DNA from: Eubacteriales bacterium
GTDB taxonomy: Bacteria > Bacillota > Clostridia > Acetivibrionales > JANLFN01
Direction: 5' to 3'
Assembly: GCA_024655885.1 (NCBI GenBank)
Contig: JANLFN010000003.1
Location: 158,792 to 222,791, forward strand
Length of the DNA stretch: 64,000 nucleotides
Both the position numbers and the translations under genes were made by a program. The notes under the pieces are model-generated. The model made no database searches. It was not told the origin of the DNA and was given only the letters and a program-made list of their open reading frames with translations. Shown piece by piece: positions 17,845-42,589 of the stretch (its first letter is position 1; every line of letters begins with the position of its first letter).

Positions 17845-17858
17845 CGATTGTTCCTCCT

Positions 17859-27548: not shown

Positions 27549-27600
27549 ACCGGACACTCTCCTTATCCTTGTGTTTAGCGCGTTATTTCCCGCAGCGGCT

Positions 27601-27653
27601 AAAAAGCACTGCCCAATAAAGGGCAGTGCTTCCGTTGTTCGGTCAGCGCCGTT
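27601..27653 (-). terminator. B-type module B2: conserved box plus a 10-bp hairpin plus U5, 52 nt upstream of the SLH/toroid gene and 58 nt downstream of the transposase gene.
   Basis: Minus strand AACGGCGCTGACCGAACAACGGAAGCACTGCCC-tttatt-GGGCAGTGCT-TTTTT. Confidence 0.7.
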
Positions 27654-27711
27654 GGTGGTCTGCTGTCTATAAAATTTTGCAAGGCTATCCTGAACAATTT
27701 TACCTTAAAAT

Positions 27712-28542
27712 TCAACCGATATCAATAGGCAGACGAGGGGACAGTTCTTTTGTCCGGGCCTCTCTTAAAATCTTGTGCACCCTGTCCTTGTTCAGCCCCG
27801 TAATGGCCGCAATGCGTCGGAGGGACAGGTTGGTCCTCTGCCTGAACTCCCTGATGACGTCCTCCTGCGGCTTTCCTTTAAAGCTGTCTCCGCCTTCCGC
27901 ATTTTGTCCGGCTAAAAGCCTTTTAAACAGCCGTCTGGCTTCCTCCTCGTCCATAACTTCCTTCTTTTGGGTCAAATCCATAAATTCTTCGCTGCCCTCT
28001 TCATTGATATAATTTTCATACAGTTTCTTCGCCTTTTCCCTGTCCTCTGAAAACATGTCCAGTATAAATTCCCGGTCCACAGCCCTGTTGAAATCATGGT
28101 TTTCATCCATGTAGCAGAGATAACTGCTCCACTTATACTCTGCCGCCGTTTTTACCAGGCCCGCCTTCACGGGATTGCGGTGTATATACCTCACCAGTGC
28201 CAGGGCATAGCCGTCATCCTCCACAGCCTCGCTCAAAAACCTGTCCTGGAACAAATGTCCCGTTCTTTTATACTTTTTGTTGAAATAATGGACATAGCTT
28301 ATTCCAATGCACTTCATTGCCCTGGCTATGTCCTCGGTGCCTTCCCGCAGCATCAAGTGGACATGGTTGCTCATGAGGCAGAAGGCGTTCAGAAAAAACC
28401 GGTTTCCCTGCTTCTTCTCAAAAACAGTTTCGAGAAAGCGCTGTCTGTCTTCCTCACTCAAAAAAATGTCCCTGCACTCATTTCCTCGCAGCATAATATG
28501 GTAAAAGCCGCTTTTACTTTTTATTCTTTCATGCCGTGGCAT
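27712..28542 (-). CDS. IS200-like / REP-associated tyrosine (Y1, HUH) transposase homologue with a C-terminal HTH.
   Basis: FYHIMLRGN..., HUH motif SNHVHLML, catalytic-Tyr motif VRYIHRNPVKAGL, and a C-terminal HTH-like LSLRRIAAITGLNKDRVHKIL. Confidence 0.8.
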   Translation of the reverse strand: MPRHERIKSKSGFYHIMLRGNECRDIFLSEEDRQRFLETVFEKKQGNRFFLNAFCLMSNHVHLMLREGTEDIARAMKCIGISYVHYFNKKYKRTGHLFQDRFLSEAVEDDGYALALVRYIHRNPVKAGLVKTAAEYKWSSYLCYMDENHDFNRAVDREFILDMFSEDREKAKKLYENYINEEGSEEFMDLTQKKEVMDEEEARRLFKRLLAGQNAEGGDSFKGKPQEDVIREFRQRTNLSLRRIAAITGLNKDRVHKILREARTKELSPRLPIDIG

Positions 28543-28567
28543 TATCCATCACCCAAGGTCTATTATA

Positions 28568-31126
28568 TTATCGGTACCATTTATTGTCAAGACAAGAGAA
28601 CCGTCCCCTTGTCTTTCTCACCCAGATATCCGCTATGAACAGCAGCAGCGCCAGAGGAAGCAGGATGAAATCCGGGTCCTGTCCGCTGCTGTTCTTCCTG
28701 TTTAAAGGAAGGCTGAATATGTTCGTATCCCGGTTTGCAATGCCGCCCTTCGCCAGGGAATAATAGGCATCCATGCTGCCGGCGTAAAGAGCGTACTCGG
28801 GAGAATAGTCGATGTGGATGACCCTTGTGGCGCTCTTCACCATCTGCCCGTCCTTTTTTACCCGGAGGGTCAATAAATACTCCCCGGTTTTGTCCAGGCT
28901 TGCGGTGCCTTCAAATTCTCCCGTCCTTACCTGCTCCAGCCGGACCCGGGAGGTCCCGCCTTCCTGGTCCCGTATTTCGGCCTCCGCCGCCTGGCCCTGG
29001 CCGGACAGCCCCGTCCCGGCAGACAGGGTCACATTATATCCGTTCTGCACGACGCGGAGGTCCATGTCTTCCGCCGTGCCCGGGGACAGGCAGGAGTTCA
29101 CCAGCTTTCCCCACTCCCTGGGGAAGCCGTCCCACCCGACCCAGTCCCTGCTCCATTTTCCGCTCAAATCCGGGGTCCACACCGCCACCCTGCCCAGGCC
29201 GTAGGACCATTGGGCGAGGATGGGGTCGTCGCTGTTGCTCTTTAAAATGAGGTCCGCCCCGTCCTTGATGCCGGTGCCGGTGTAGCCCTGCAGCTTAGGG
29301 AGGGCTACATTTTTGAAGAGCTCGCTCTCATCCGCCTTCTGTGGGGTGAACTCCTCGCTGTTCAGGTATTTTTTTGTGCCCAGGTAGGTCTCCTTGGTGA
29401 ATATTTCAGGCACCTCATACAGATCCCGGGCATAATAGCTCCTGCCCCCCGCCGCTTTTGCCAGGCTTTCCAGCAGCGTCCTGTCCGCGTCCTTCCCCAC
29501 GGCCACGGTGGACAGGGTGATGTTCGATTTTTTCAAAGTGTCGGTGATGCCCTCATAGCCGCTTTTTTCGGCCTGCCCGTCGGTGAGCAGGATGATGTGC
29601 TTTACCTTGGCATCCGCTCCCTCCAGGGCTTCTGCCGCTTTTTCCAGTGCGGGCAGGATGAGGGTGCCCCCCCTGGGGGCCAGCTTCCCGATGTCCTCCT
29701 GTATTTGCTCCTTACGGCGGACCTGTCCGAAGGGCACCACCCACTCCACCACGTCCGAAAACCCGATGATCCCCAGGAAATCCTCCTGTTCAAGCACCTG
29801 GGAGGACTTTACCGCCGCCCCCTTGACCAGGTCCATCTTTTTTACCCCCCCGCTGGTGTCGTCCATGCTGCCCGAGCAGTCCAGGACCAGCACCAGGCCG
29901 GTGTCGGGCTGCTGCTTTTTTCCCTTCATGGAGCAGGCCACCGGCAGCATTTCCTCCAGCCGGGTGTTTTCATACCCCCCGGGAGCAAAGGTGTTCTCCC
30001 CGCCCACCACAATGAGGCCGGTGCCCTTCTCCTTCACGCACATTTCCAGGCCGTTCTCGAATTCCGGGGACAGGTCCCCGTGGGCCGCATTGGCCAGGAT
30101 GACCTCGCTGAAGGAGGACAAAAAGCCGATGCCGCCCGGCACCTGGTCCGGCGCATAGTTTGTGCGCTTTAAGCCCAGGCTGTCCAGCAGGGCATTGATG
30201 TTGGCCGTATCCTTTTGGGCCCCCACCACCAGGACCGAAGGCGTGTCCTTTACATGCGGAGTTAGGGTAAATACGTTGTTTTTGGGGTTGGAATCCTCCT
30301 GGGAAACGATTTCCCCCTTAAAGGACGCCTGGAGGTCATGGCTTAGGGTGACGTCGAAATCGTAGGTGTTCCGGCCCTCCCGGATTTCCAGCTGCTTTTG
30401 GAGCACCGGGGTGGTGCCGTTATAGAGGTAAAAGGCGGCGGCGGTGTTTTTGTCCGAGTCCACGGCCACTTTAAGGGGCACCTTTTCTCCCCTGTGGATG
30501 CTGTCGGGCAGCTGCATGGAGGTAAGCTGCACATCCCCGCCCCGGGAGGCTTTCAAAGGGAACAGCACCGTATTGATGCCGCTTTCCTCCAGGCTGTCCA
30601 GCGCTTTGGCCGCATTGCCGCTGTTCTCCAGCCCGTCGGTGAACACCACCAGCCTTTTGTTGTCATTCCTGGGAAACAGGTCCCTGCAGTATTGAAGGGC
30701 TTTCTCAAGGTTGGTGGCCTCCGGGTCGGGCTGGGCTTCCAGCTTGACTTCCTGCCTCTCCTTCGAAAGGGGGACCTCGGTCATGGGCTCCCCCGCAAAG
30801 GACACCACACCCGCCACATCCCCGGCTTTTTTATTGTTCTTGATCTGGCGGCTGATGTACTCCTCCACTTCTCCCTTCAGCTGCGAAACGCTGAGAGAGC
30901 GGTCTACAAGGAACAGGGTGGCGGTCTCCCTGGCGGTGAAGACGGGCTTCACCCCCGCCAGGACCAGCATGAGGCACAGCAGGGCGGAAAACCTTAAAGC
31001 GGCCCACAGGATAAACTTCTTGCGGGGAAACGCCTTGTACAGCTTAAGGGCGCACAGGATAAAATATCCGGCGGCCGCCGCGCACACCGCTGCCGCAGCC
31101 ACTCCAACCGGGGTATTAAAGCTCAT
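28568..31126 (-). CDS. Membrane-anchored protein with two von Willebrand factor A (vWA) domains (BatB-like).
   Basis: N-terminal TM helices. MIDAS motifs FLVDRSLSVS and LVLDCSGSMDD. C-terminal TM helix. 11-nt overlap with the upstream gene. Confidence 0.8.
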   Translation of the reverse strand: MSFNTPVGVAAAAVCAAAAGYFILCALKLYKAFPRKKFILWAALRFSALLCLMLVLAGVKPVFTARETATLFLVDRSLSVSQLKGEVEEYISRQIKNNKKAGDVAGVVSFAGEPMTEVPLSKERQEVKLEAQPDPEATNLEKALQYCRDLFPRNDNKRLVVFTDGLENSGNAAKALDSLEESGINTVLFPLKASRGGDVQLTSMQLPDSIHRGEKVPLKVAVDSDKNTAAAFYLYNGTTPVLQKQLEIREGRNTYDFDVTLSHDLQASFKGEIVSQEDSNPKNNVFTLTPHVKDTPSVLVVGAQKDTANINALLDSLGLKRTNYAPDQVPGGIGFLSSFSEVILANAAHGDLSPEFENGLEMCVKEKGTGLIVVGGENTFAPGGYENTRLEEMLPVACSMKGKKQQPDTGLVLVLDCSGSMDDTSGGVKKMDLVKGAAVKSSQVLEQEDFLGIIGFSDVVEWVVPFGQVRRKEQIQEDIGKLAPRGGTLILPALEKAAEALEGADAKVKHIILLTDGQAEKSGYEGITDTLKKSNITLSTVAVGKDADRTLLESLAKAAGGRSYYARDLYEVPEIFTKETYLGTKKYLNSEEFTPQKADESELFKNVALPKLQGYTGTGIKDGADLILKSNSDDPILAQWSYGLGRVAVWTPDLSGKWSRDWVGWDGFPREWGKLVNSCLSPGTAEDMDLRVVQNGYNVTLSAGTGLSGQGQAAEAEIRDQEGGTSRVRLEQVRTGEFEGTASLDKTGEYLLTLRVKKDGQMVKSATRVIHIDYSPEYALYAGSMDAYYSLAKGGIANRDTNIFSLPLNRKNSSGQDPDFILLPLALLLFIADIWVRKTRGRFSCLDNKWYR
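28591..28613. repeat. Truncated A-type repeat A3.
   Basis: GACAAGAGAACCGTCCCCTTGTC matches the outer 6 nt of the left arm plus the right arm (GAACCGTCCCCTTGTC) of A1/A2. It lies inside the last codons of the 852-aa vWA gene and 49 nt upstream of the transposase start. Confidence 0.6.
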
Positions 31127-32654
31127 GTCGGTACACCTCCGGTTCCGCCGCCATCAGAAGCAGCACGGCCATAAGGAGCAGCGGCTTGAGATCATGCATG
31201 AGCGGCAACGCCGCGGCGGCCGCCTCCCCGTCCTTCCCTTCCTCCCCCGTCACAAATCCGGACGGGGGATTGGAGGGCAGGGTTTTTTCCCTGTCCTCTG
31301 ACAGCCAGCTTACGGTGCGGCGGACCAGGATGGGAAAGGCGGGAAGCATGACCAGGTTTGTCCGTGAAAGGTCCAGGGAGGAGTACACCATTCTCCTTCC
31401 CTCCTCCACCCCGGAGGTCATGACGGGTTTGCCCCCCGCCAGCAGGATGCTCCCGTAGCCCTCCCCCTGTTTTAAATAATCCCCGCCCGCCGCATAGGCC
31501 CCCGTGAGGGAAAGGCCGACGGTCAAAGCTTCGCCGCCCTGCTCCAGTGCCGCATTCTGCTCCAATTTGCCCGCCTTCATTTCCTCTCCGGGGAAGAGAT
31601 TCCATAGGCTGCAGGCGGGCAACGCTTGAGGAGCTTCCAGCTTCCGGGCCACAATGCAGAGATCGTATCCGTTCTGCATGTCCTCCGGGTTCCCGGAAGA
31701 CTCCAGCTTTATGCCGGGAATGGATTCCAGGGCCTTTTGCAGGAAGGGACTGTCCCCCAGCAGCAGCACCCGGGTCTTGTACTCCTCTCCCAGGGGCACC
31801 ACAAAGGAGTTGTCCTCCTCCAGCATGTCCTCTCCGGTGATTTTTACCGTCACCGGTCCCGGATCCCCCTGCAGTTTAAAGCTGACATAGCCCTCTTCAC
31901 TGGAGGGGAGGGTGATGCCCTCCAAGGCCTTCTTTCCTTGGCTGTCCACCGCTTCCACCCCGATATTCCTGGCGGCGGCCGAATAATTCTTCACCCTGCA
32001 CTGGAGACTCCCCGAGTAGTAGTCGTACTTTGCACCGGTAATGCCTGCGTTGTCCAGCCGGCCGCCCACCTTCACCTCTCTTGCCCCCAGGGACAGGTCT
32101 TTATCGGTGAACACCGCCTTTTCCCCGCTGTATGCCGACAGCAGCCTCCCGGCCCTTTCCACGTCCAGGCTTTCATTGGAGCAGGCCATCTCTTTAAGAG
32201 CCCGGACGGCCCCGCTTTTGTCGGCATCCGCCAGGTACTCGCCGCACTGGCTCTTCAGCACAAGCAGAGTAATGCGCGTGCGGTCGGGCAGGGTCTGCAC
32301 ATACTCCATCGCCTTTTCCCTGGCCTCCTCAAACCGGGTCTTCCCGTTTTCCCGGGCCTTCATGGAGATGGAGCAGTCCAGGGCCACCACCGCCCTTTCG
32401 CCTTGAAACCCCTCCACCCATATGGGTCTTGCCGCGGAGAGCACGATGAAAACGCCGATGAGGAGCTGAAGGACCAGAAGAAGGCTATTGCGGATTTTTC
32501 CCACCCTGAGCCCTTCCGTTTCCCTGACCACCTCCTCCCACAGCTCAAGCCAGGAAACCCTGTATTCCACCACCTGCTTTTTTTTGAAATAGAGCAGCAG
32601 GATGGCGGGCAAAAGCAGGGCCGTCAAAAAACCCAGGGGCTGCAAAAATTTCAT
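31116..32654 (-). CDS. BatA-like protein (aerotolerance-regulator N-terminal domain plus vWA).
   Basis: The start is placed at ATG 32654 (MKFLQPLGFLTALLLPAILLLYFKKKQ, a typical BatA N-terminus), forming an ATGA overlap with the DUF58 stop. MIDAS motif VVALDCSISM. C-terminal TM helix. Confidence 0.75.
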   Translation of the reverse strand: MKFLQPLGFLTALLLPAILLLYFKKKQVVEYRVSWLELWEEVVRETEGLRVGKIRNSLLLVLQLLIGVFIVLSAARPIWVEGFQGERAVVALDCSISMKARENGKTRFEEAREKAMEYVQTLPDRTRITLLVLKSQCGEYLADADKSGAVRALKEMACSNESLDVERAGRLLSAYSGEKAVFTDKDLSLGAREVKVGGRLDNAGITGAKYDYYSGSLQCRVKNYSAAARNIGVEAVDSQGKKALEGITLPSSEEGYVSFKLQGDPGPVTVKITGEDMLEEDNSFVVPLGEEYKTRVLLLGDSPFLQKALESIPGIKLESSGNPEDMQNGYDLCIVARKLEAPQALPACSLWNLFPGEEMKAGKLEQNAALEQGGEALTVGLSLTGAYAAGGDYLKQGEGYGSILLAGGKPVMTSGVEEGRRMVYSSLDLSRTNLVMLPAFPILVRRTVSWLSEDREKTLPSNPPSGFVTGEEGKDGEAAAAALPLMHDLKPLLLMAVLLLMAAEPEVYRHEL

Positions 32655-33493
32655 CCGCACACCCCCAAAGCCCTCTGCAGGATTTTCAAGGGGGCTTCCT
32701 CCGCGGCGGCGGGCACATAAAAAGCCCCCAACCGGGTGCACAGGTCTTTAAGGCCTTGAATGAAGGCCCCCACCTTTTGCGCGTATTTTTGCTTCATGGG
32801 CCCGGTGAAATGAATCCTGCGGACCGCACCCGTCTCCATATCCACCAGCTTCAGCTCCTCCCCGCAGTCGGGGTTCTTTTCGGCGGAGGCCAGCACGTGG
32901 ATGAGCACCGTTTCTTTGCCTTCCAGGCATAAAGAATTCACCAGGCTTTCCCTCTGCCCGCTGAAAAAATCCGAGACCACAAAGGTCATGTCCGCGCTCC
33001 GGTCCTCCAGCTCCCCAATTCTCTCAAAAGAGGTGATGCCGTGGGGGATAAGCCGGGACACCCTGTCCGCCAGCTCATAGAAGCATTCCCTTCCCTCGGC
33101 GCCCCTCAGGAGGAATTCCAGCCTGTCGTTTACCGTAAGGAAGCTCAAACGGTCTCCCTGTTTGAGGGTAATGTAGCTCAGTCCTGCGGCCACAAGCCGG
33201 GCCGTCTTCCATTTGCCTGGTCCGCCGAAGCCCATGGAGGCGCTGGCGTCCAGCAGCACCCTCACGTGCATCCGCCTTTCCTCCGAAAACTCTTTTATGT
33301 AGAGATTGTCGGTCCTGGCATAGGCCATCCAGTCGATTTTTCTTATATCCTCCCCCGGGGCATAGGGGGTGTGCCCGTAAAAATCCATGGAAGCACCCCT
33401 CCCATACCCCTTGTGAACTCCCGGGCCGCCTTTCAGTATGGTCTTTTGGGGTGTGATTCTCATGTTTTCTATTTGCTGGAGAAATTTTTCCAC
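32651..33493 (-). CDS. DUF58 family protein (vWA-like, the usual MoxR partner).
   Basis: GEDIRKIDWMAYARTDNLYIKEFSEERRMHVRVLLDASASMGFG is the characteristic DUF58 core. Confidence 0.85.
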   Translation of the reverse strand: MEKFLQQIENMRITPQKTILKGGPGVHKGYGRGASMDFYGHTPYAPGEDIRKIDWMAYARTDNLYIKEFSEERRMHVRVLLDASASMGFGGPGKWKTARLVAAGLSYITLKQGDRLSFLTVNDRLEFLLRGAEGRECFYELADRVSRLIPHGITSFERIGELEDRSADMTFVVSDFFSGQRESLVNSLCLEGKETVLIHVLASAEKNPDCGEELKLVDMETGAVRRIHFTGPMKQKYAQKVGAFIQGLKDLCTRLGAFYVPAAAEEAPLKILQRALGVCG

Positions 33494-33494
33494 C

Positions 33495-34466
33495 CTATTT
33501 CACCTTCTTCAGTACTTCCTCTAAAATCATGTCCGGGTCCACTTTTTCCGCCTGGGCCTTAAAATTCAGGAAAATACGGTGCCGCAGCGCCGGACGGGCC
33601 ATGGAGGCGATATCCTCGAAAGCCACATTGAACCGGCCTTCGGACAGGGCCCGCACCTTGGCGCCCAGGATGACCGACTGCACTCCCCGGGGGCTGGCCC
33701 CGCAGGCCACATACTCCCTTACCGCCGGCACCGAGGTCCTGTCGGGATGGGTTTCCAGCATGAGGGCCACCGCCTTTTTCTTCACATTGGCCGCCACGGG
33801 TACCTGCGCCGCGTGCCTCTGGGCCGCCAGGATCTCCTCCCTGGAGGCCCGCTTCTCCGCCTCCCGCCCCTCCCTTCCGCTCACCGTAAGGTCCAGGATC
33901 CTGTAGATGTCCTCCTCCCGGGGCAGCCCGATTTTGAGCTTGAACAGGAACCTGTCCAGCTGTGCCTCGGGAAGGCGGTAAGTGCCCTCCATTTCCAGAG
34001 GATTCTGTGTGGCCAGCACAAAAAACGGCCTGGGCAGGGGATAGGTTTTTTTCCCCACGGTCACCGTCTTCTCCTGCATGGCCTCCAGCATGGCGCTCTG
34101 GGTTTTGGGAGTGGCCCGGTTGATCTCGTCCGCAAGGATGAGGGAGCTGAAAATGGGACCCTCCTGGAAATCAAAGGCCAGCCCGCTTTCGGTCTTGTTG
34201 ACGATATAGGTGCCCGTGATGTCCACGGGCATCAGGTCGGGCGTGAACTGGATCCTGGAAAAGGGCAGGTCCAGCACCCTGGCAAAGGTCTTGACCAGCA
34301 CCGTCTTGCCCAGGCCGGGAGCGCCCTCCATCAGGACGCTCCCGCCGGCCAGGATTGCCGTCAGCACCTCCCGCACCACCTCCTCCTGGCCCACCACCTG
34401 TTTTTGGACCTCTCCCAGCACAGCCTCATAAAAATTCCTGAAATTTCCTAATTCCAAATCCTCCAT
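33495..34466 (-). CDS. MoxR-family AAA+ ATPase.
   Basis: Walker A GAPGLGKT, RIQFTPDLMPVDITGT, Walker B/sensor LILADEINRATPKTQSAMLEAMQE, ATQNPLEMEGTYRLPEAQLDRF. Confidence 0.9.
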   Translation of the reverse strand: MEDLELGNFRNFYEAVLGEVQKQVVGQEEVVREVLTAILAGGSVLMEGAPGLGKTVLVKTFARVLDLPFSRIQFTPDLMPVDITGTYIVNKTESGLAFDFQEGPIFSSLILADEINRATPKTQSAMLEAMQEKTVTVGKKTYPLPRPFFVLATQNPLEMEGTYRLPEAQLDRFLFKLKIGLPREEDIYRILDLTVSGREGREAEKRASREEILAAQRHAAQVPVAANVKKKAVALMLETHPDRTSVPAVREYVACGASPRGVQSVILGAKVRALSEGRFNVAFEDIASMARPALRHRIFLNFKAQAEKVDPDMILEEVLKKVK

Positions 34467-36047
34467 TCAGTTCCCCCCGTTTAACCGATTAAAATATTCC
34501 AGCACCACCGGCTTTTCCCCGGAGGGTATTTCGTATTTGGAGACATACTCCATGCCCTCCTGCTTGAACTGCCTGTACAGGCTGTCCCTGTCCATGAGCT
34601 GGCCGGCGGTTTCCGCCACCCGGTCCGACTGCTTGCTCTTTATGTCTCCCTGCCCCTCCTGCCACTTTCCTTTCACCTGGGAGGCACTGCCGCCTTCCGG
34701 AGCGGGAAGGGCGGAGGCCTCGCTCCTGTCCACCTGTCCCTCGCGGCCTTTTTCGTCCCCGCCGCTGCCGTCCGAGACGCCTCCCCCGCCCTTCCCGTCG
34801 GGGCTTCGCACGGCCGTGTTGCCGGCTTCTCCCAGGGCGGTCCCCGAGGGGCTGCCGCCTCCGGCCTCTCCGTCTTTCATTCCCGCGTTTTCACCCTCGG
34901 TGAAGGCGCTGCTCTTCCGGTCCCGCCCGTCGCTGTCAAAGCCTTCCCGTCCCTTTGCCATCAGCCTTTCCTTCAGGCTCTGAAGCTTTGCTTCCGCCTC
35001 GTCCGCCGCCTCCGGCTCCTGTTTTTTTGCCAGGGCCCCGGTGAAAGCGTCCGAAAGCTTCTGTCCGTCCAGGACCCCCTTTTCCGCCGCCGCCTTCAGC
35101 TTTTCCAGGGCCTCCCCCCGGGGGGACGTGCTGTCCGCGTCGGCAGTGCTCTGGAGCCTCCGGATATTGTCCAGCATGCGCTGCTGTTCCTCACCGGTAA
35201 GGCTGAGGGCCTGCACCGCTTTGGCCGCATCTTCCGCTTTCCCCGACTCCAGCAGGGCTCTGGCTTCTCTATAGGGGCTGCCCATGCCGTCAAAGATGCC
35301 CGCCAGCCCTTTCAGGTCCTCTCCCGCCGCCTCCTTCCGCCGGGCCTCCAATTCCTTCTGGGCGGCGGAAACGTTCAGGGCCGCCTCCTCATAGCTATAG
35401 CCTGCGGCCAGCTTTTTTTGGAGGCTGCGGAGAATGTCCGGCGTCCTGTCCCGGGAAACGCCCTCTCCGGTCCCCTCCTCTTTTTCCTGCTCCGCCTGCT
35501 GCGCCAGCCGGGCCACGTTTTCCGCCTCCTCCTTCAAGTCCTGGTGGACCTGCTGCTTCAAAGCGGCCGCCCTGGTATTGGCGGAAGGGATAAAAAAGAC
35601 GCCTGCGGACAGGGCCGCCAGCAAAAGGGCCGCCAGCAGCCTTCTCCAGCCTATGCGCAGCCTGTACCTCTCGGCGGGGCGGAAGCCCTCCACCGCGTCC
35701 CGCACCTCCTCCCTGAAGGCCTCCAGCACAGGCCCCCTCCCCTCCCTGTACTCCAGGTAGGTGGACAGCCTGTCCATGAGGCCCAGGGCGTCTCCCGCCC
35801 GGGCCGCCGCCTCCAGGCCCGGCCGCATCAGCAGGCCCGCGGCAAGTCCTGCGGAAAGGATGAGCAGGGCGGCAAAGGCGCACTTGGGAAGCACCTGCAC
35901 AAGGATTACGGCGTGGGCGGCGGCCGCGAGGGCCAGGGCGCACAGGGCCCACGCCAGCAGCGCATTTATGGAGCACCGGAGGATATGCTCCAGCCACAGC
36001 CTGTTCCTGAGTTTTTTTACCGCAGCAAACACCGGGTCCTGCTTCAT
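34467..36047 (-). CDS. Membrane-anchored coiled-coil / low-complexity protein (unknown function, DUF4175-like architecture).
   Basis: Three N-terminal hydrophobic helices, then an Ala/Glu/Lys-rich coiled region and a Gly/Ser/Glu-rich tail. Abuts moxR with a 0-nt gap. Confidence 0.6.
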   Translation of the reverse strand: MKQDPVFAAVKKLRNRLWLEHILRCSINALLAWALCALALAAAAHAVILVQVLPKCAFAALLILSAGLAAGLLMRPGLEAAARAGDALGLMDRLSTYLEYREGRGPVLEAFREEVRDAVEGFRPAERYRLRIGWRRLLAALLLAALSAGVFFIPSANTRAAALKQQVHQDLKEEAENVARLAQQAEQEKEEGTGEGVSRDRTPDILRSLQKKLAAGYSYEEAALNVSAAQKELEARRKEAAGEDLKGLAGIFDGMGSPYREARALLESGKAEDAAKAVQALSLTGEEQQRMLDNIRRLQSTADADSTSPRGEALEKLKAAAEKGVLDGQKLSDAFTGALAKKQEPEAADEAEAKLQSLKERLMAKGREGFDSDGRDRKSSAFTEGENAGMKDGEAGGGSPSGTALGEAGNTAVRSPDGKGGGGVSDGSGGDEKGREGQVDRSEASALPAPEGGSASQVKGKWQEGQGDIKSKQSDRVAETAGQLMDRDSLYRQFKQEGMEYVSKYEIPSGEKPVVLEYFNRLNGGN

Positions 36048-36766
36048 GTCCTGTTTCGCCGCCTTTCTTTTACTTGGGGATATTTTATGGAAATTGCCAT
36101 GTTGACACAGGAAAATAAGGTCCAGAACAGCAGACAGGCGGGGTACGGCATGTAGCCGCCCTGCACCTGCCCGCCGGTCTGGGCGTTCAGCAGCCCGGCT
36201 GCGGAATGCAGCGGGTTCAAAAGAAATAAAAAGGGGATGCGTTTATCAAAAACCGTAGTGATGACAGTCCGGTTATACTCTACGAAAAAGTAGAGGAACA
36301 CGGGCAAGAGCACCAGTACGGCAAAAATGAAAACTGCGAGAAGGAAGCCTTTCCACTTTTTGATACGCAGGGCTTCCAGGGCACTCTTAAAGCTCAGCAG
36401 GCCCGTCCCCCAAAGGGCCTGTACCGCCAGCACCAGCATGAAATTCACGCCGCTCAGCTTTCCCAGCACCAAAATCATGAGGATGAGGGGGATGGGGGAA
36501 AGGGTGAATACCAGCACTCCCCCCAGCATTTTCAGGTATTTTCCCCGTCCGGCCCCGCCGGTCTTCCAGAAGGGCAAGAGCACCGAAAAGAGCACAAAGG
36601 AAAACAGCATAAAGTACATGTACGCTTTCCCCCAGGCCTCGGGATCATACCCTTCCGCCCTCATGGCCACCAGGAGGAAATAGGCTGTTGAAACCACCGA
36701 GAGCAGGGCGATATAGACTGTAATGATGAGCTTGTTTTCTTTTCCTATGTTCAAAATCTCTATCAT
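36044..36766 (-). CDS. Polytopic membrane protein (about 6 TM helices), unknown function.
   Basis: 240 aa, strongly hydrophobic, with ATGA-type overlaps on both sides. Confidence 0.65.
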   Translation of the reverse strand: MIEILNIGKENKLIITVYIALLSVVSTAYFLLVAMRAEGYDPEAWGKAYMYFMLFSFVLFSVLLPFWKTGGAGRGKYLKMLGGVLVFTLSPIPLILMILVLGKLSGVNFMLVLAVQALWGTGLLSFKSALEALRIKKWKGFLLAVFIFAVLVLLPVFLYFFVEYNRTVITTVFDKRIPFLFLLNPLHSAAGLLNAQTGGQVQGGYMPYPACLLFWTLFSCVNMAISIKYPQVKERRRNRT

Positions 36767-38877
36767 GATTGGCCTCCCGCCGTCCCTTTTTCTCCCTTGG
36801 GATCATAGGCGCCCTTCAGGGAAATGTCGGGGAGGATGACCCTGGAGGCCCCTGTGATTCTTATCTTAAGAGGGCCCCCTGCTGTGCACCGGTCCAGGGA
36901 ATCCCCTGAAAGGCTGTTTCCTTCCAATTCCCGCCATGACCCCTGCTTCCGGTCAAAGACCTCCAGAGTGCCGGCGCCCTTTTCAGGCACGCCGTAGAAT
37001 TGGATTTCCTCCGCCCGGATGTCCGGGGGAAGCACATAGTACACCGGCAGCTCCTCCCCCTGCCCGGGGAGGTACTCCTTTTTCCCCGCCGGCGCCGTGT
37101 TCTCTCCGGGGTCGGGGACCGGCGCTATATAGCCGCAGGGGAAATAGACCTCCCCCTCCGGCGCATTCAGTTCCGCCGGGAAAACGTGGAGGACCGTGGA
37201 CCTTATACTCCGGGCCCTGCCGTCCACCTGCACCCTCTCGGTGCCGTCGGCAAAGCCCAAAAGCCTCCCCCCCGGGGCCCCGTCCTCCAGGCCGTAATAG
37301 TAGTGCTCAAACAGCAGCTGCTGTCCCTCCTCCATCCTGGCCGTCCTGGAAATGGTGTCCAGAAAATTGTACTCGCTTAGGCTTCTCAGGTTATGGTCAA
37401 GGCGGTACTTCACCCGGACCTCCTCCCTCCCCTCCAGGTCCCCCAGGGAAATCACCGTGTCTCCCAGGAGGAGGAAGCACTGACAGAGCTTGTAGGGAAG
37501 GGGGTTTTTAATTTTCCCCGTCAGCACCTCTCCCTGGTCCAGGTCCAGCTTGAATACGGCGGCCTCCGACGGTTCCAGGCCCATGCCGTAGGCGTAGTGA
37601 GGGCCCTTCCCCGCAAAGCCGGATTCCATCTCCAGGGGGTCCTCCACCCCCTGGTCCTGGCCGCAGTTGCACAGGAAGGAGGCTTCCGGCCACTTCAGGG
37701 AAATCTTCCCCTCCCCGCGGGGATAGACCCCTGTGAGGGTGTATCTCCTGGACGTATTTCCCTTTTCATGGATTTTGACCGCCGCCGCAGCGGCAGAGGT
37801 ATCCTGCACCCCTCCCCACAGGGCCGCTATGTAAAATATGCCGCAAAAGCCCGCCACCACGGCGGAAAAAAGCCAGTGGAGCTTTTTGTCCAGGCAGAGG
37901 GCCGTGCCCGCCGCCAGCAGGTACAGCGCCAGAAGGGACAGCAGGAAGAAAAGGGCATCGGCCGTAGGCCTGAGCCTTCCGTCCGACGCCGGATACAGCT
38001 TCTCCACCTCCCGCAGCTGCCGTGTGAGGCCGCTCTCTCCCACTATTTTGGAAATCCCATAGGGTGTGGCGTATTTTTGAAGCACCTCCTCCACAAATTC
38101 CGGCGTTTTGTTCTCCAGTCCCTCGGGTACGGGCACGATGACCCCGTCCCCCACGCTCCTGGGGCCGGTCAAGTCTTCAAACAGGCCTTTCATATTTTTA
38201 TAGGCGTACTGCCCCGCGCCCACCAGCAGGCAGTTGCCCCGTCTTATCCAGCGTTCCAGGGTTTTGCCGCTCTCCGCTGCCAGGTCCGTCCCATCGAAGT
38301 CGTCCACCAGGATAAAGTTGAAATTTTCAAGCTCTTCCCCGCTGTAGGCAAAATCCTTATCCAGCCGCACCACATGGGCTTTTTTCCCTCCCAGGGCGTC
38401 CAGGTCTATCCCCGCCGCATAGGCGAAGGTCTCGGGGGTATCGCTGAGGATGCCTATAAGCACGCTGTTTTCAGGCAGCATCTCAGGTGAAAAATCAGCG
38501 CCGGCCACCGCCTTTCCCCCGCTTTCAAGGCCGGCGGAAATTTTTGAGTCCGCCTTAAAGAAGGGAATGGAAAACACAAAGCTTTTTCTGCAATATTTTG
38601 GAATCTTTATCCCGTGGCTGTAGTTTCTTCCCTCCGCCACCACGGTCAGCGTCCCTTCCCAATCCTCTCCCGTCCCTTCTACCGAGACGGCCACCGGGTT
38701 GACTCCTCCCAGCCTGCACTTCCCGTCAAAGCCGGCTGCAATGGAAATGTTTATATTTTGAGCCCCATAGGCACAGGTGTGCGCTCCAAAAAGCCAGAGG
38801 ACCACCGTGAGAAAAATGGCCGTAAACAGCCTCAAGCCATATTTTCCGGTGATCTGTCCCGTTCTTTTACTCTCCAT
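36763..38877 (-). CDS. 704-aa membrane protein, unknown function: N-terminal exported domain, central TM pair, C-terminal beta-rich domain.
   Basis: Signal/anchor LFTAIFLTVVLWLFGAHTCAYG. Central helices FFLLSLLALYLLAAGTALCL and WLFSAVVAGFCGIFYIAALWG. The segment VLIGILSD...FNFILVDDFD...LERWIRRGNCLLVGAG is reminiscent of the GATase1-like domains in Bat/GldG-type proteins (weak). Confidence 0.55.
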   Translation of the reverse strand: MESKRTGQITGKYGLRLFTAIFLTVVLWLFGAHTCAYGAQNINISIAAGFDGKCRLGGVNPVAVSVEGTGEDWEGTLTVVAEGRNYSHGIKIPKYCRKSFVFSIPFFKADSKISAGLESGGKAVAGADFSPEMLPENSVLIGILSDTPETFAYAAGIDLDALGGKKAHVVRLDKDFAYSGEELENFNFILVDDFDGTDLAAESGKTLERWIRRGNCLLVGAGQYAYKNMKGLFEDLTGPRSVGDGVIVPVPEGLENKTPEFVEEVLQKYATPYGISKIVGESGLTRQLREVEKLYPASDGRLRPTADALFFLLSLLALYLLAAGTALCLDKKLHWLFSAVVAGFCGIFYIAALWGGVQDTSAAAAAVKIHEKGNTSRRYTLTGVYPRGEGKISLKWPEASFLCNCGQDQGVEDPLEMESGFAGKGPHYAYGMGLEPSEAAVFKLDLDQGEVLTGKIKNPLPYKLCQCFLLLGDTVISLGDLEGREEVRVKYRLDHNLRSLSEYNFLDTISRTARMEEGQQLLFEHYYYGLEDGAPGGRLLGFADGTERVQVDGRARSIRSTVLHVFPAELNAPEGEVYFPCGYIAPVPDPGENTAPAGKKEYLPGQGEELPVYYVLPPDIRAEEIQFYGVPEKGAGTLEVFDRKQGSWRELEGNSLSGDSLDRCTAGGPLKIRITGASRVILPDISLKGAYDPKGEKGTAGGQS

Positions 38878-40207
38878 AAGGTATGTTCGTCACCCCTTCT
38901 TCCGTCACCACCGCTCCAAAGCACCCCGTCAAAGCCTTGGGATTGTTCAAAAGGGTGTCTATGGCCAGCCTGTATCCCTGGAGGTCGGTGCCGGTGACCA
39001 GCCAGATGGGATTGATGCTCCCTATGGACGCTCCGTAGGCGTACACGGCCCCTGAATGGTCGTAGGTGGATATGGCCTTTCCTTTGAAGTTGAGGGCCTG
39101 CAGCTTTCGGTCTTCAAATTTGGCATAGACGCCCACCAGCTTGTTCTTGGCGTTGATGTCCTTCAGGTCCTCATTGTTTTGGGACAGCTCATCCCACACC
39201 CCCAGCAGGATGTAATACTTTTTCGGGGCCCTGATGATCCCGGGGTTGTAGGCTGCGGTATCCACCTGCTTGACCCCCTGGGCCGTCAGGCTTTCCTTCA
39301 GCTTCTGCGCATCCTCTTTGGTATCTTCGGTGTACATGATCACCGTCCCCGGGTTCTTTCCCATAAAGCCGCTCTTGAAGGGCTGGGGATAGGAGCCGAT
39401 GACGGCGGGAACAAACATGGTGAGGCTCCAGTCGTGGTAATCCCACCAGATGACATCCCCGGGCTGGGGCTTGTACTCCGCAACGCCTATGGGGGCCAGG
39501 ATGCCGTTGACCCAGTAGAACCAATCCAGCTTTTTCCGGTCCTTTCCCGTAAAGAAGGTGTATCCGGATTCCAGGCCGTTGATGGCATTCACGAAGCCTC
39601 CCCCGTAGGCCGTCTGGATGTCCAGGTTCCTGAACATGACCTCCATGCCCACTTCATCCCGGACCAGCCCCACATTTTTGGCAAAAATATTTTTGTGCCC
39701 GTAATCCCGGGTGACGATCAAATCCACATGGTACGGGCTCTCAATGTCCCCCGAGGCCTTATACTCCTTTGAGTTCTCTCCTGCGGGCCTGCCTTCCTGG
39801 TACTTGATCTCCCCCTGGACAGGACCCTTGTACCCTTTATAGGGACTGCCCGCCGCAGAGGCATCCCCGCCTTCCTTTTTCCCGGCGGCGGACCCCTTCC
39901 CCGTGCCTTCTCCCGCATTCCAGCCCGCGGATGAATCCGGACTGCCACCGGACAGGCCCGCTCCCTCGCCTGTTCCCGTGCTCTGCTGACCAGGGCCGGA
40001 GGTGTCCTCGGTACTTATCCCGCTTTCAGACAGGGCGGCCGCAGCCGTGGTTTCTCCGGCGGTTATCACCCCTGCCGCCGCGGTTTCACCGGCTTTATCC
40101 ATATTGGAAACGGTCCTAGGCTCCCCTCCCGTGCACCCGTTGATGGAAACCGCCGTCAGCACGGCTGCCATGAAAACGGCAGCCCTTTTCAAATACACTC
40201 TTTTCAT
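38867..40207 (-). CDS. Lipoprotein with a low-complexity linker, a DUF4430 (transcobalamin-like) domain and an extra C-terminal domain.
   Basis: AGGAGGG SD and lipobox AVSING|C. DUF4430 signature GFVNAINGLESG...LDWFYWVNGILAPIGVAEYKPQPGDVIWWDYHDW. Confidence 0.8.
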   Translation of the reverse strand: MKRVYLKRAAVFMAAVLTAVSINGCTGGEPRTVSNMDKAGETAAAGVITAGETTAAAALSESGISTEDTSGPGQQSTGTGEGAGLSGGSPDSSAGWNAGEGTGKGSAAGKKEGGDASAAGSPYKGYKGPVQGEIKYQEGRPAGENSKEYKASGDIESPYHVDLIVTRDYGHKNIFAKNVGLVRDEVGMEVMFRNLDIQTAYGGGFVNAINGLESGYTFFTGKDRKKLDWFYWVNGILAPIGVAEYKPQPGDVIWWDYHDWSLTMFVPAVIGSYPQPFKSGFMGKNPGTVIMYTEDTKEDAQKLKESLTAQGVKQVDTAAYNPGIIRAPKKYYILLGVWDELSQNNEDLKDINAKNKLVGVYAKFEDRKLQALNFKGKAISTYDHSGAVYAYGASIGSINPIWLVTGTDLQGYRLAIDTLLNNPKALTGCFGAVVTEEGVTNIPYGE

Positions 40208-40223
40208 CCGGCTTTCCCTCCTG

Positions 40224-40276
40224 AAAAAAACAACGGAAACACTACCTTATGATAGTGCTTCCGTTGTTCGGTCAGC
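40224..40276 (-). terminator. B-type module B3: a 16-bp hairpin plus U7 between the YezD-like ORF and the DUF4430 lipoprotein gene.
   Basis: Minus strand GCTGACCG-AACAACGGAAGCACTA-tcataagg-TAGTGTTTCCGTTGTT-TTTTT. It shares GCTGACCGAACAACGGAAGCACT with B1/B2 and ends 17 nt before ATG 40207. Confidence 0.7.
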
Positions 40277-40283
40277 ATTTACT

Positions 40284-40421
40284 CTAAAGTTTAATGGATT
40301 TTTTTAATTCCTCTACCCGTACAGGCTGTTTATCCTGTACAACAATTCTAACCTCGCCGTAGCCCGTATCGCGAATAATCCGGATGAGCTTTTCCTCCTT
40401 CTCGGTCAGGCCCCTGTCCAC
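40284..40421 (-). CDS. YezD-like (DUF2292-type) small protein, ~45 aa, first cistron after riboswitch RS3.
   Basis: GTG 40421 follows AAGAGGGGGG. The sequence LTEKEEKLIRIIRDTGYGEVRIVVQDKQPVRVEELKKSIKL parallels the ORF at 23618. The longer track ORF (to 40580) runs into the riboswitch aptamer. Confidence 0.5.
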   Translation of the reverse strand: MDRGLTEKEEKLIRIIRDTGYGEVRIVVQDKQPVRVEELKKSIKL

Positions 40422-40544
40422 ATCCCCCCTCTTTTTCCCTTTGATATCCCTTTCCCATTGGGTCTCAAAGCCGTCCCACGGCTCCAGGCAATGGCCTGCA
40501 GGCTCCTTTAAGGCTGCGGCAGGCTCCTTTTGATAAGCCACTAC

Positions 40545-40762
40545 AAGACACCCCCCTATTCCTCGTAGAGTCGATGGCATTTGGAAACAGGCAGGTCTTC
40601 TGGCTCAAGCCTCATCATCTCCCCTGCCTTCCCGGTTCATCAGTGGCATTCCTGGGGAGACTCCTCTTTTACAGCGGCGGGACCGCGCAGGTTTCTCACC
40701 CGACTTCCCTTTTCACCGGCCCGTAATTACACCTAAATCACGGCCGGCACCTGAGTCCTCCT
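40545..40762 (-). promoter_or_regulatory. Cobalamin riboswitch RS3 (no obvious intrinsic terminator).
   Basis: B12 box AGCCAGAAGACCTGCC = 40590-40605. Core GGGAAGTCGGGTGAGAAACCTGCGCGGTCCCGCCGCTGT. GCCACTG and GGGAAGG are present. Confidence 0.9.
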
Positions 40763-40787
40763 ATTCAATTTTTTGCGGTTACATTAT

Positions 40788-41603
40788 CTATCTAAATGTG
40801 GTATCCATATTGCCGGCCGTGCCCTCCTGCATGCGTGCGTCCCTGCAGTTTTTTACAAACTCCAGCACGGCGTCAATGGCATTGGCCTTGTGGCCATGGA
40901 CCACTTCGGGTCTTTCTATCATGATGACGGGTATACCCAGTTTTCTGGCCGCATTGATCTTCTCCATCACGCCTCCCGCATTTCCGCTCTCCTTTGTCAC
41001 CATTGCGGAGGCATTGCAGTATTTTAGCAGTGCGATGTTCAATTCTTCGGTAAACGGGCCTTTCATGGCAATAATGTTCTTTGCGTTAAATCCCAGTTTT
41101 TCACATCTTGCAATCACATTGCTCTCCGGAAGCACCCTCAGGTAAACCCGGTTCCTGTAGTCCGGGATTTTCACGAAGGCTTCCATTTTTCCGCTTCCCA
41201 CCGTCAGCAGGATATTTCCTTCAAGGAAACACAGCTTTTGCACCGCCTGTTCGTAGTCTTTCACTTTTACAATATCGGTGCCCGTGTACACCGTTTCTTC
41301 CCTTTCAAAGCGTATGTACGGCACGTTCCTTCTTTTACAGGCATCTACCGCATTCTGGGAGGCCTCCCTGGCGAAAGGGTGGGAAGCGTCCACCAGGCAC
41401 AGGGGCTTTGTTTCACTGAGAAGGCCCGCCAGCCATCGGAGCGTGATCCGGCCCTCCCGCACGTCCACATTCCCCAACGGTTTGAGCAGATCACCGCCCA
41501 ACCGGGTGGTGACGGTAGCAACCACTTCTATATTCATTTTCAGCAGTTCTTCAATGACCTGTCTTGCATCCGCCGTTCCTGCGACAACGAGCACTTTTGG
41601 CAT
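40788..41603 (-). CDS. cobK: Precorrin-6A / cobalt-precorrin-6A reductase.
   Basis: MPKVLVVAGTADARQV..., CLVDASHPFAREASQNAVDACKRRNVPYIRFER, LTVGSGK, RVLP, IIAMKGPFTEELN, MVTKESGNAGG and LGIPVIMIERP follow the CobK/CbiJ pattern throughout. The start is placed at ATG 41603. Confidence 0.85.
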   Translation of the reverse strand: MPKVLVVAGTADARQVIEELLKMNIEVVATVTTRLGGDLLKPLGNVDVREGRITLRWLAGLLSETKPLCLVDASHPFAREASQNAVDACKRRNVPYIRFEREETVYTGTDIVKVKDYEQAVQKLCFLEGNILLTVGSGKMEAFVKIPDYRNRVYLRVLPESNVIARCEKLGFNAKNIIAMKGPFTEELNIALLKYCNASAMVTKESGNAGGVMEKINAARKLGIPVIMIERPEVVHGHKANAIDAVLEFVKNCRDARMQEGTAGNMDTTFR

Positions 41604-42225: not shown

Positions 42226-42512
42226 AAAAGCTCTCCGCTTTCAACCTTACAAGAAGGAAGCGGAGAGCTCAGCAATATGCCACTAAACCCATCTCCAATT
42301 GGTCCTCCATCTCTCGTAGAGTTACACGGTATAATAAAACAGGCAGGTCTTCTGGCTTAAGCGTCATCATCTCCTCTGCCTTCCCGGTTTAGCAGTGGCA
42401 TTCTCAGGGAGACTCTTCTCATACAGCGGCGGGACCGCGCGGGATTTTTACCCGACTTCCCTTTTCATCAGCTACGGTTCTATCCGTTAAAAACATAGCT
42501 GACACCTGTTTT
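42226..42512 (-). promoter_or_regulatory. Cobalamin riboswitch RS4 (aptamer ~42310-42512) with a 12-bp terminator (42226-42270).
   Basis: B12 box AGCCAGAAGACCTGCC = 42342-42357. Core GGGAAGTCGGGTAAAAATCCCGCGCGGTCCCGCCGCTGT. Terminator AGCTCTCCGCTT-N18-AAGCGGAGAGCT plus TTTTT. Confidence 0.9.
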
Positions 42513-42589
42513 TATTATTTAATTATTATTATATTTTATCATGCTTTCGTTTACAATGCAATCTTTTATTTATTATTGTAAATTTTTAT

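Follow-up and report, generated by a model that had tools for sequence, protein, structure and literature searches.

Operons that combine a MoxR ATPase, a DUF58 protein and BatA-type or other von Willebrand factor A (vWA) proteins are widespread, and to our knowledge nobody has yet assigned them a substrate or a task. What might such a machine do behind a vitamin B12 riboswitch? The question is raised by a 64,000-nucleotide stretch of DNA from a Eubacteriales bacterium (GenBank assembly GCA_024655885.1, contig JANLFN010000003.1, positions 158,792–222,791; hereafter the window), where a cobalamin riboswitch is followed on the minus strand by eight genes that join a DUF4430 lipoprotein to MoxR, DUF58, BatA and vWA proteins. 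An earlier note on this DNA, made from the letters alone, had proposed that a Bat-type envelope machine was recruited here to a corrinoid-handling step, and knew of no earlier description of such a link. Our full-text literature searches agree on the latter point: they gave no paper joining cobalamin riboswitches or DUF4430 to MoxR, DUF58, BatA or vWA, and a corrinoid-starvation study in Dehalobacter makes no mention of MoxR, DUF58, BatA or vWA proteins. What is new is the conserved union of a Bat-like machine, transcobalamin-like binders and a B12 regulon; the parts are of known kinds.

The unit and its linkage across genomes

The riboswitch, the genes of the unit and the insertion that interrupts it are as follows (aa, amino acids):

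40573–40769, minus strand: cobalamin riboswitch aptamer (RF00174, 104.5 bits, E 4e-25, model positions 1–189)
38867–40207, minus strand: 446-aa DUF4430 lipoprotein (PF14478, 50.6 bits, cutoff 23.8)
36763–38877, minus strand: 704-aa membrane protein (no Pfam or NCBIfam match; transmembrane map)
36044–36766, minus strand: 240-aa protein with six transmembrane segments (no Pfam match in 13 of 13 family members)
34467–36047, minus strand: 526-aa protein (no Pfam or NCBIfam match; transmembrane map, positive-inside tally)
33495–34466, minus strand: MoxR AAA+ ATPase, predicted cytoplasmic (AAA_3 PF07726, 204.4 bits, cutoff 27; AAA_lid_2, 54.4 bits)
32651–33493, minus strand: DUF58 protein, vWA-like, predicted cytoplasmic (PF01882, 107.9 bits, cutoff 23.4; DxSxS motif)
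31116–32654, minus strand: BatA-type protein, 512 aa (PF07584, 42.5 bits, cutoff 25.9)
28568–31126, minus strand: 852-aa double-vWA protein (VWA 103.5 and VWA_2 103.9 bits, two stretches each; GATase1_like 36 bits)
27712–28542, minus strand: IS200-like Y1 transposase, 276 aa (PF01797, 50.7 bits), an insertion outside the system
25932–27557, minus strand: 541-aa S-layer-anchored alpha/alpha-toroid protein (S-layer homology domain, SLH, 64 bits; SQHop_cyclase_C 47 bits; Prenyltrans 35 bits)

We surveyed the lipoprotein family, which comprises 171 clusters, by a genome scan with the family alignment, and obtained 80 loci. A tblastn comparison of the window proteins with these loci split the family into subfamily A (core identity at least 56%) and subfamily B (30–42% identity). 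Subfamily A occupies about 19 loci in Clostridia, Desulfotomaculia, Peptococcia and Aneurinibacillus (the window, L003–L014, the partial L028, and L093–L096), and every one of them has homologues of seven partners: the 704-, 240- and 526-aa proteins, MoxR, DUF58, BatA and the double-vWA protein. The co-occurrence of DUF4430, MoxR and DUF58 genes for which the earlier note had wished to search is therefore found in all subfamily-A loci. Their hosts are a Peptococcaceae metagenome-assembled genome (MAG), Marinisporobacter, 'Lutibacter sp. B2', Desulfotruncus arcticus, Paramaledivibacter caminithermalis, Aneurinibacillus aneurinilyticus, a C. tetanomorphum-type genome, C. formicaceticum, Crassaminicella profunda, Caminicella sporogenes and other MAGs. 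In C. formicaceticum the order is permuted, with the machine first, then the lipoprotein, a toroid protein and a 1474-aa DUF4430-SLH protein, and the linkage is retained. Identity of the 704-aa protein falls to 24–34% across the subfamily-A loci, and four divergent relatives of this protein (34–55% identity) lie in the same gene order in 4 of 4 cases. In the C. tetanomorphum-type genome (L093, 17426–18946), BatA is annotated as short fragments of 53, 105, 56 and 154 aa, and the rest of the operon is intact; the fragmented gene may be a pseudogene or reflect a sequencing frameshift.

Among the 15 subfamily-A loci with readable upstream DNA (L028 and L094 were left out), 12 carry RF00174 in cis, so that the absence of linkage in related genomes, which would have spoken against the earlier proposal, is not what we observed. 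The placements were:

RF00174 directly upstream of the unit: L008, L009, L011, L013, L014, L093, L095
RF00174, then a DUF2292 reading frame, then a leader: the window, L003/4 (aptamer 3' end at the contig edge), L005, L006
Tandem RF00174 heading a longer same-strand array: L007

Subfamily-B loci, whose hosts are Bacillota, Dehalococcoidia and Solirubrobacterales, never contained the machine, and RF00174 headed the operon in 6 of the 6 tested. At L016 (Desulforadius tongensis), for example, the order is riboswitch, a giant SLH-DUF4430-toroid protein, lipoprotein, the T component of an energy-coupling factor (ECF) transporter, double ABC ATPase, ECF-S and toroid. Two subfamily-A loci place the machine beside other corrinoid genes. 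In the Peptococcaceae MAG (L007, 1565–21308), the array starts with the tandem RF00174, a 908-aa SLH-toroid-DUF4430 protein, a 243-aa DUF4430 protein, a double ABC ATPase and ECF-S, and continues with DUF2292, the CUGAC leader described below, a subfamily-A lipoprotein and the full MoxR/vWA machine. In Desulfotruncus arcticus (L011, 8459–9944), RF00174 precedes CbiZ, and a second RF00174 is followed by the lipoprotein-machine operon. CbiZ is adenosylcobinamide amidohydrolase, an enzyme of cobamide salvage and remodelling. We also considered that the machine simply replaces the ECF module; this idea is weakened because L007 has both in one same-strand array.

The eight genes of the window are packed as tightly as had been described. 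There are 11-nt overlaps at 38867–38877 and 31116–31126 and 4-nt overlaps at 36763–36766 and 36044–36047, with no gap between the 526-aa and MoxR genes and a gap of 1 nt between MoxR and DUF58. A further 4-nt overlap (32651–32654) depends on the BatA start at ATG 32654 (512 aa), which is the NCBI annotation and gives the conserved MKFLQP start; the longest open reading frame (ORF) would begin at GTG 32741. Start and stop codons that overlap in this way suggest that the genes are translationally coupled. A Pfam scan of the eight proteins, which the earlier note had called for, found the DUF4430, AAA_3, DUF58, BatA N-terminal and VWA domains.

The unit does not stop at these eight genes, however. 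In L003–L006 the toroid gene (72–77% identity) directly follows the vWA gene, with no IS200-like gene between the two, and toroid genes are linked also in L013, L093 and L094. Because of this direct succession, the toroid gene is by synteny assigned to the unit as its ninth member, cut off in the window solely by the IS200-like insertion, which has a perfect TTGACA-17-TATAAT promoter of its own at 28590–28562.

Predicted folds and membrane topology

The window lipoprotein consists of a disordered linker, a motif found in subfamily A only, the DUF4430 domain and a C-terminal alpha/beta domain. The motif, YKGYKGPVQGEIKY...ASGDIESPY in the window protein, lies just ahead of DUF4430 and has the nearly invariant subfamily consensus YKGYKGPVQGEIKY..G.PA..NS...KASGDI.SPY (family alignment A1). 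In an AlphaFold2 model the confident core spans residues 155–446 (predicted local distance difference test, pLDDT, ~85–95). Foldseek comparison of the modelled DUF4430 domain returned haptocorrin (4kki, E 6.6e-4), transcobalamin (7qbg, 4zrp) and intrinsic factor (2pmv), that is, the beta domains of three corrinoid carriers, in keeping with the transcobalamin-like fold claimed before. It also returned 3kq4, as well as the structural-genomics protein 3u7z (TM-score 0.70, target-normalised), a DUF4430 structure annotated as a putative metal-binding protein. The DUF4430 and C-terminal alpha/beta domains together resemble the CBD-flavodoxin pair of BcsB (Foldseek), and when the lipoprotein profile was compared with PDB sequences, no solved chain gave a meaningful match. 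On the strength of the model we assign the DUF4430 domain a transcobalamin beta-like fold; corrinoid binding is predicted only. The lipobox of the window protein is atypical (I-N-G-C), and the subfamily-A proteins L008 (9926), L009 (9941) and P0022 have no lipobox cysteine, just a signal peptide or anchor, indicating that lipidation is not universal in the family.

The 541-aa toroid protein is a candidate counterpart of the transcobalamin alpha domain. Toroid and DUF4430 proteins as split transcobalamin domains have been noted for Lsa1840 and Lsa1839 of L. sakei (10.1101/864751).

Conservation of the machine's catalytic motifs bears out their initial identification. The Walker A and B motifs of MoxR (GAPGLGKT, LADEINR) were invariant across 12 loci, and the metal-ion-dependent adhesion site (MIDAS) signature DxSxS was kept across the same 12 loci in all four vWA-type domains, including those of DUF58, BatA and the double-vWA protein. 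The BatA-type protein begins with the double-transmembrane BatA domain, whose two N-terminal segments are separated by a lysine/arginine-rich loop, and continues with an outside vWA-like domain (DCSIS), a C-terminal transmembrane segment and a conserved EWEVYRR tail; its vWA region scores 19.3 bits against VWA_2, under the cutoff of 27, and its MIDAS motif DCS[IL][ST] is conserved. The 852-aa protein carries its two vWA domains (DRSLS, DCSGS), both predicted outside, and a GATase1-like domain between a transmembrane hairpin and a C-terminal transmembrane segment with a lysine/arginine-rich tail.

The three proteins that Pfam and NCBIfam left unmatched are also membrane proteins. The 704-aa protein is composed of a signal peptide or transmembrane segment, an outside beta-sandwich and alpha/beta domain, a transmembrane hairpin and a second outside domain. 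The 526-aa protein has a transmembrane hairpin, a 62-aa lysine/arginine-rich cytoplasmic loop, a third transmembrane segment and a long outside coiled-coil and low-complexity region, and is best conserved at the cytoplasmic loop and a C-terminal motif.

Topology was predicted from hydropathy and the positive-inside rule and was checked across homologues. By these predictions, four proteins expose regions on the outer face: BatA its vWA domain, the 852-aa protein its two vWA domains and its GATase1-like domain, the 704-aa protein its two large domains, and the 526-aa protein its coiled coil. MoxR and DUF58, which have no transmembrane segment, are placed inside, and all BatA-type and vWA domains outside, a predicted arrangement that agrees with the experimentally periplasmic vWA domain of the BatA-like protein BB0173 (PMC5700661).

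An exhaustive profile search with the 704-aa family gave about 23 orthologue clusters and then about 2000 representatives, mostly of about 800 aa, some of which carry DUF7408, DUF4350 or ABC_transp_aux (GATase1-like) domains. A word-indexed search with the same protein, single or as a profile, returned just 5–6 proteins, an undercount relative to tblastn and the exhaustive search. One relative, P0006, adjoins ABC_tran and ABC2_membrane genes. The 704-aa protein would thus appear to be a distant relative of GldG-like ABC-2 accessory proteins. Alignment by hhalign of the 240-aa family with the ABC-2 permease beside P0006 was weak (E 6.5e-4, probability 27%, 179 collinear columns), and no match was obtained with the window's own ABC-2 permease; the 240-aa protein is possibly a diverged ABC-2-type permease. 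Taken together, these matches make the 704/240 pair look like descendants of an ABC-2 accessory protein and its permease.

Riboswitch, leader and corrinoid island

Between the riboswitch and the lipoprotein gene lie two further elements, one of which recurs in the window:

40284–40541, minus strand: DUF2292 (YezD-like) ORF (PF10055, 24.2 bits)
40216–40283, minus strand: CUGAC leader, in which GCUGAC precedes a 4-bp hairpin (P1) and a terminator hairpin with its U-run
27589–27654, minus strand: second CUGAC leader copy, upstream of the SLH-toroid gene (36.7 bits, E 4e-5 with covariance model R1; sequence CTGACCGAACAACGGAAGCACTGCCC...)
24417–24488, minus strand: third CUGAC leader copy in the window (model R1)

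The riboswitch had been recognized from its B12 box and an Rfam scan near 40500–40800 had been recommended; we ran it, and RF00174 (gathering score 31.5 bits) gave the full-length aptamer listed above with the box, AGCCAGAAGACCTGCC at 40605–40590, inside it. The aptamer begins 21 nt past the cbiJ stop codon. No promoter-like site was found between that stop codon and the riboswitch, and none on the minus strand in 40208–40790, an interval that includes 40208–40283, where the earlier note had considered a separate transcription start. A promoter-like site at 42556–42528 and another RF00174 riboswitch (42325–42524, minus strand) head a 191-aa ORF and cbiJ. Because of the 21-nt spacing and because no promoter-like site was found there, the riboswitch at 40573–40769 may be internal to a longer transcript that starts from the promoter of the 42325–42524 riboswitch, and the two riboswitches may act serially on one transcript.

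No terminator follows the window aptamer immediately. In the relatives L006, L008, L009, L011, L013 and L014 classical terminators follow the aptamer, and the directly placed aptamers show terminator hairpins with U-runs, as OFF switches would. A conserved Shine-Dalgarno (SD)-like element, GAUAGGGRGGUGU, lies upstream of the GTG of the long DUF2292 ORF. A P13-like hairpin masking the ribosome-binding site of DUF2292 was considered and dropped, since the folds of three loci were inconsistent and not beyond those of shuffled sequences.

The DUF2292 ORF, described before as a YezD-like frame of ~45 aa, can start at GTG 40421 (45 aa) or at GTG 40541 (85 aa, the NCBI annotation). The latter adjoins an SD-like AGGGGGG just past the aptamer, and the last 45 aa are the conserved core. 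The long in-frame form also occurs in L004 and L005, and orthologues occupy the same position in L003/4, L005, L006 and L007. A paralogue (23621–23743, minus strand; 51% identity over 41 residues) lies downstream of a riboswitch at 24146–24316 and its terminator and upstream of a giant surface-protein operon (11584–23212), so that in this genome DUF2292 is found a second time between a B12 riboswitch and a surface-protein operon.

The strong hairpin reported after this ORF was confirmed by folding. It spans ~40225–40270 with a 19-bp stem and U7, ends 16 nt before the lipoprotein ATG (40207), and the 101-nt stretch that holds it has a minimum free energy of −36.3 kcal/mol (z −6.8; 0 of 200 shuffles folded equally well). 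That account was incomplete, however, as the hairpin is part of a conserved leader/terminator motif that also occurs without a riboswitch (L012, L096); it is not an ordinary terminator. P1 is 100% paired in the alignment, with compensatory changes at 3 of 4 pairs, and the 5' arm of the terminator is conserved (AGGCAYUAUC). Our covariance model of the leader, R1, scores 77 bits at 40216–40283 and also detects copies outside its seed. The leader recurs in the window clade and in L007, L012, L028, L094 and L096; copies precede the toroid gene in L003, L005 and L006 as well as in the window. No R1 copy was found in the subfamily-B loci, and the leader has no match in Rfam, the E-value scan of the region giving noise only. 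The copies outside the window are:

L003: 242–309 and 12101–12171
L005: 8539–8602 and 20389–20457
L006: 614–678 and 12684–12755
L007: 9928–9992
L012: 9782–9861
L028: 172–240
L094: 47–122
L096: 9902–9976

The leaders of L096 and L012 have no riboswitch ahead of them and follow a TTGACA-17-TATAAT promoter of their own. The machine operon is thus preceded by a riboswitch, by a CUGAC leader, or by both. The leader may be a new attenuator or antitermination target, forming a second regulatory layer. Because it also occurs without a riboswitch, B12 control of the window's eight genes would be indirect, and is predicted rather than proven. Ribosome-mediated antitermination at the DUF2292 stop codon was another candidate. 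The spacing from that stop to GCUGAC is conserved (9 nt), and P1 begins ~12 nt past the stop; the mechanism is unlikely, since P1 is out of the terminating ribosome's reach and the leader occurs without DUF2292 in L012, L096 and L094.

Five RF00174 riboswitches, all on the minus strand, mark the whole window as a corrinoid island, which offers several more uncharacterised candidates. Beyond the two already described, three further riboswitch-headed units lie in 543–24316. These include a 1576-aa protein with three DUF4430 domains, a toroid and SLH anchors (543–5273), genes for a BtuF/C/D-like ABC importer (7533–10978), and the operon at 11584–23212, which encodes surface proteins of 283, 1459, 1114 and 966 aa with PQQ_2 beta-propellers and Big/CARDB, DUF4430 and SLH domains. 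Those with propellers may be analogous to BtuG in function. Directly after the BtuFCD-like genes comes a pair of ABC ATPase and ABC-2 permease genes (5876–7448, minus strand); Caminicella sporogenes (L096, 850–2427) has a similar pair after a BtuF-SLH fusion. This pair could be the ATPase partner of the ABC-2-like components, or an exporter. Elsewhere, an S-adenosylmethionine riboswitch (RF00162, 46868–46972, minus strand, 89.8 bits) lies ahead of the S-adenosylmethionine synthetase gene (45588–46916, minus strand), an ordinary arrangement.

Interpretation and comparison with known systems

The synteny, the riboswitches in cis at 12 of 15 loci, the fold of the DUF4430 domain and the CbiZ and ECF neighbours all support the idea that a Bat-type machine is tied to corrinoid handling. 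On balance, and with modest confidence, we consider it probable that the whole unit is a corrinoid-starvation-induced surface system for corrinoid capture and hand-over. The capture role is supported because CbiZ (L011), ECF genes (L007), BtuFCD-like genes and four more riboswitch units neighbour the unit. Scarcity of corrinoid would let the riboswitch permit expression, and the toroid protein and DUF4430 lipoprotein would jointly trap corrinoid in split-transcobalamin fashion. The outside vWA/MIDAS domains, of which three have intact motifs (those of BatA and of the 852-aa protein), might dock on the binder, perhaps at the acidic motif specific to subfamily A. ATP hydrolysis by MoxR/DUF58 could then be relayed through the membrane subunits, including the ABC-2-like 704/240 pair, and the relayed motion would open or unload the high-affinity trap and pass corrinoid to an importer, for instance BtuFCD in the window or the upstream ECF module in L007. 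A motor would be needed because very tight carriers require energy for release and Gram-positive cells lack TonB. Each single mechanistic step deserves much less confidence than the reading of the unit as a whole.

Several observations weigh against the capture and hand-over reading. A strong terminator and a separate conserved leader stand between the riboswitch and the eight window genes; L010, L012 and L096 have no riboswitch; and the folds downstream of the aptamer disclosed no sequestering structure that was consistent among three loci or better than shuffles. The link between the 240-aa protein and ABC-2 permeases is weak (probability 27%), and the AlphaFold2 model of the 704-aa protein is poor (pLDDT 58; 5 input sequences), with Foldseek matches to generic immunoglobulin- and CARDB-like sandwiches. 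L007 carries an ECF module in addition to the machine, which argues against simple transporter replacement. A metagenome scan with the 240-aa family for machines without the lipoprotein returned just 4 contigs of 1–3 kb. Many of the host species, C. tetanomorphum and C. formicaceticum among them, are known corrinoid producers, so that scavenging meets no obvious need there. Finally, mechanotransmission and docking are pure inference, and both corrinoid binding and B12-responsive expression are predictions from sequence.

Other readings must account for the same data. The MoxR/DUF58/BatA/vWA proteins could be an assembly or maintenance chaperone for the surface binders that never touches corrinoid. 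The MoxR-family ATPases NorQ, CbbQ and CoxD, with their vWA partners NorD, CbbO and CoxE, mature or remodel complexes; the unit sits among many large SLH-anchored surface proteins, and the recurrence of the leader before the toroid gene suggests coordinated expression of surface components. We nevertheless regard this as rather unlikely, because subfamily-B operons have like binders without the machine, so that binders do not generally need it, and because the nearly invariant subfamily-A motif suggests a working partnership and not one-off assembly. It is improbable, too, that the genes form a generic Bat-like envelope or stress machine under the CUGAC leader, with the riboswitch governing only DUF2292 (elsewhere the lipoprotein). 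The terminator between DUF2292 and the operon would fit, as would the promoter-borne leaders of L096 and L012 and the fact that Bat operons elsewhere are without a defined substrate (PMC3557215). On such a reading, however, the lipoprotein-machine synteny would hardly be complete in all subfamily-A loci, the permuted one included, or the start and stop codons overlap as in translational coupling. Nor would a promoter fit into the short stretch from the terminator to ATG 40207, the scan of 40208–40790 found no minus-strand site, and in seven genomes the riboswitch terminator stands directly before the operon.

The remaining alternatives concern the ligand and the chemistry. Cobalamin riboswitches accompany both lipoprotein subfamilies, the cobinamide salvage enzyme CbiZ adjoins the operon in L011, and the fold matches are corrinoid-binding domains, all of which make it quite improbable that the ligand is heme or another tetrapyrrole, or that the unit supplies cobalt for de novo synthesis. 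This possibility draws on cbiJ next door, on the regulation of cobalt transporters by B12 riboswitches, and on the L. sakei ECF operon with transcobalamin alpha/beta-like proteins, an operon that has been tied to heme uptake (10.1101/864751). Chelatase-like insertion, removal or exchange of a corrinoid or tetrapyrrole metal at the surface, an analogy drawn in the earlier note, appears highly improbable. An AAA+ ATPase with a vWA-MIDAS protein is indeed the motor of class I chelatases, 3u7z is annotated as putative metal-binding, and MoxR gave weak Mg_chelatase and BchD matches. Yet no CobN/BchH-type subunit was found among the nine genes or the neighbouring large ORFs scanned. MoxR scored 204 bits against AAA_3 and 23 bits against Mg_chelatase (44 residues only), with 31 bits for BchD (cutoff 500) and 16 bits for BchI (cutoff 467) in NCBIfam. 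The vWA domains are, moreover, predicted outside and the ATPase inside, unlike the soluble I/D complex. The earlier note had also named chelatases as the AAA+/vWA pairs with defined chemistry, which overlooks NorQ/NorD, CbbQ/CbbO, CoxD/CoxE and RavA/ViaA.

Within the capture and hand-over reading, a bolder version can be framed, which we hold only tentatively. MoxR would extract corrinoid mechanically from a femtomolar-class split-transcobalamin trap, through BatA/vWA and ABC-2-derived subunits, and feed the importer, with the CUGAC leader a new attenuator class acting with or without a riboswitch. If true, Gram-positive cells would have a functional counterpart of the TonB-powered BtuG/BtuB relay, and a Bat-like system would for the first time have a defined job. 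The linkage itself gives a first regulatory and ligand clue for Bat-like machines, and bears on corrinoid capture and release at the surface of Gram-positive bacteria, which have no TonB-dependent outer-membrane transport. The Bacteroides relay is being worked out, and we know of nothing comparable for Bacillota. The hypothesis is testable in Crassaminicella profunda, Clostridium tetanomorphum/cochlearium, C. formicaceticum, Aneurinibacillus aneurinilyticus and Desulfotruncus arcticus.

How does the unit compare with known systems? With class I chelatases (CobNST, BchHID/ChlHID) it shares a corrinoid or tetrapyrrole setting and the pairing of an AAA+ ATPase with a vWA/MIDAS protein; it differs in having an AAA_3 MoxR, a DUF58 protein and membrane-anchored, predicted extracytoplasmic vWA domains, without CobN/BchH. 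With ABC-2 systems (GldA/F/G; PF09822, ABC_transp_aux) it shares the domains of the 704-aa family, the context of P0006 and the weak 240-aa/permease alignment, whereas MoxR is its sole ATPase, with no ABC ATPase, and the similarity is remote.

The Bat-like operons of B. fragilis, spirochaetes, Francisella and Riemerella have in common with it an AAA_3 MoxR, DUF58, a double-transmembrane BatA with a vWA domain and a further membrane vWA protein, with vWA domains outside the cytoplasmic membrane (BB0173, PMC5700661). Their substrate is not known, and a Bat deletion in Leptospira had no phenotype (PMC3557215). Unlike the batA–E operons, the nine proteins of the window unit gave no Pfam match to tetratricopeptide-repeat (BatB/C/E-type) or BatD-type proteins; the unit has instead the family-less 704-, 240- and 526-aa membrane proteins, its vWA protein combines two vWA domains with a GATase1-like domain, and it is joined to DUF4430 and toroid genes under a cobalamin riboswitch in Bacillota.

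ECF operons with split transcobalamin alpha/beta-like proteins, described in L. sakei (lsa1836–1840; 10.1101/864751) and seen here in L016, share a DUF4430 lipoprotein of the same family (30–42% identity), a toroid partner, a cobalamin riboswitch at the head and nearby SLH-anchored giant DUF4430/toroid proteins. The window unit (25932–40769), by contrast, has none of the ECF components T (CbiQ), A (ABC ATPase) and S; its 704/240/526/MoxR/DUF58/BatA/vWA block lies between two binder genes, and its lipoprotein carries the extra conserved N-terminal motif of subfamily A.

A functional comparison can be made with Bacteroides, where BtuG, BtuH and BtuJ1 are surface lipoproteins under B12-riboswitch control that pass corrinoids to the transporter (PMC13616437, 10.1101/2025.07.01.662609). 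Both systems have surface lipoproteins for capture, a predicted role in the window unit, and in both a membrane energy-transducing system powers, or in the window unit would power, the hand-over. The folds are unrelated, BtuG being a beta-propeller. In Bacteroides, the TonB system and the proton-motive force act across an outer membrane to BtuB, whereas the window unit is an SLH-anchored system with a candidate AAA+ motor in the cytoplasm.

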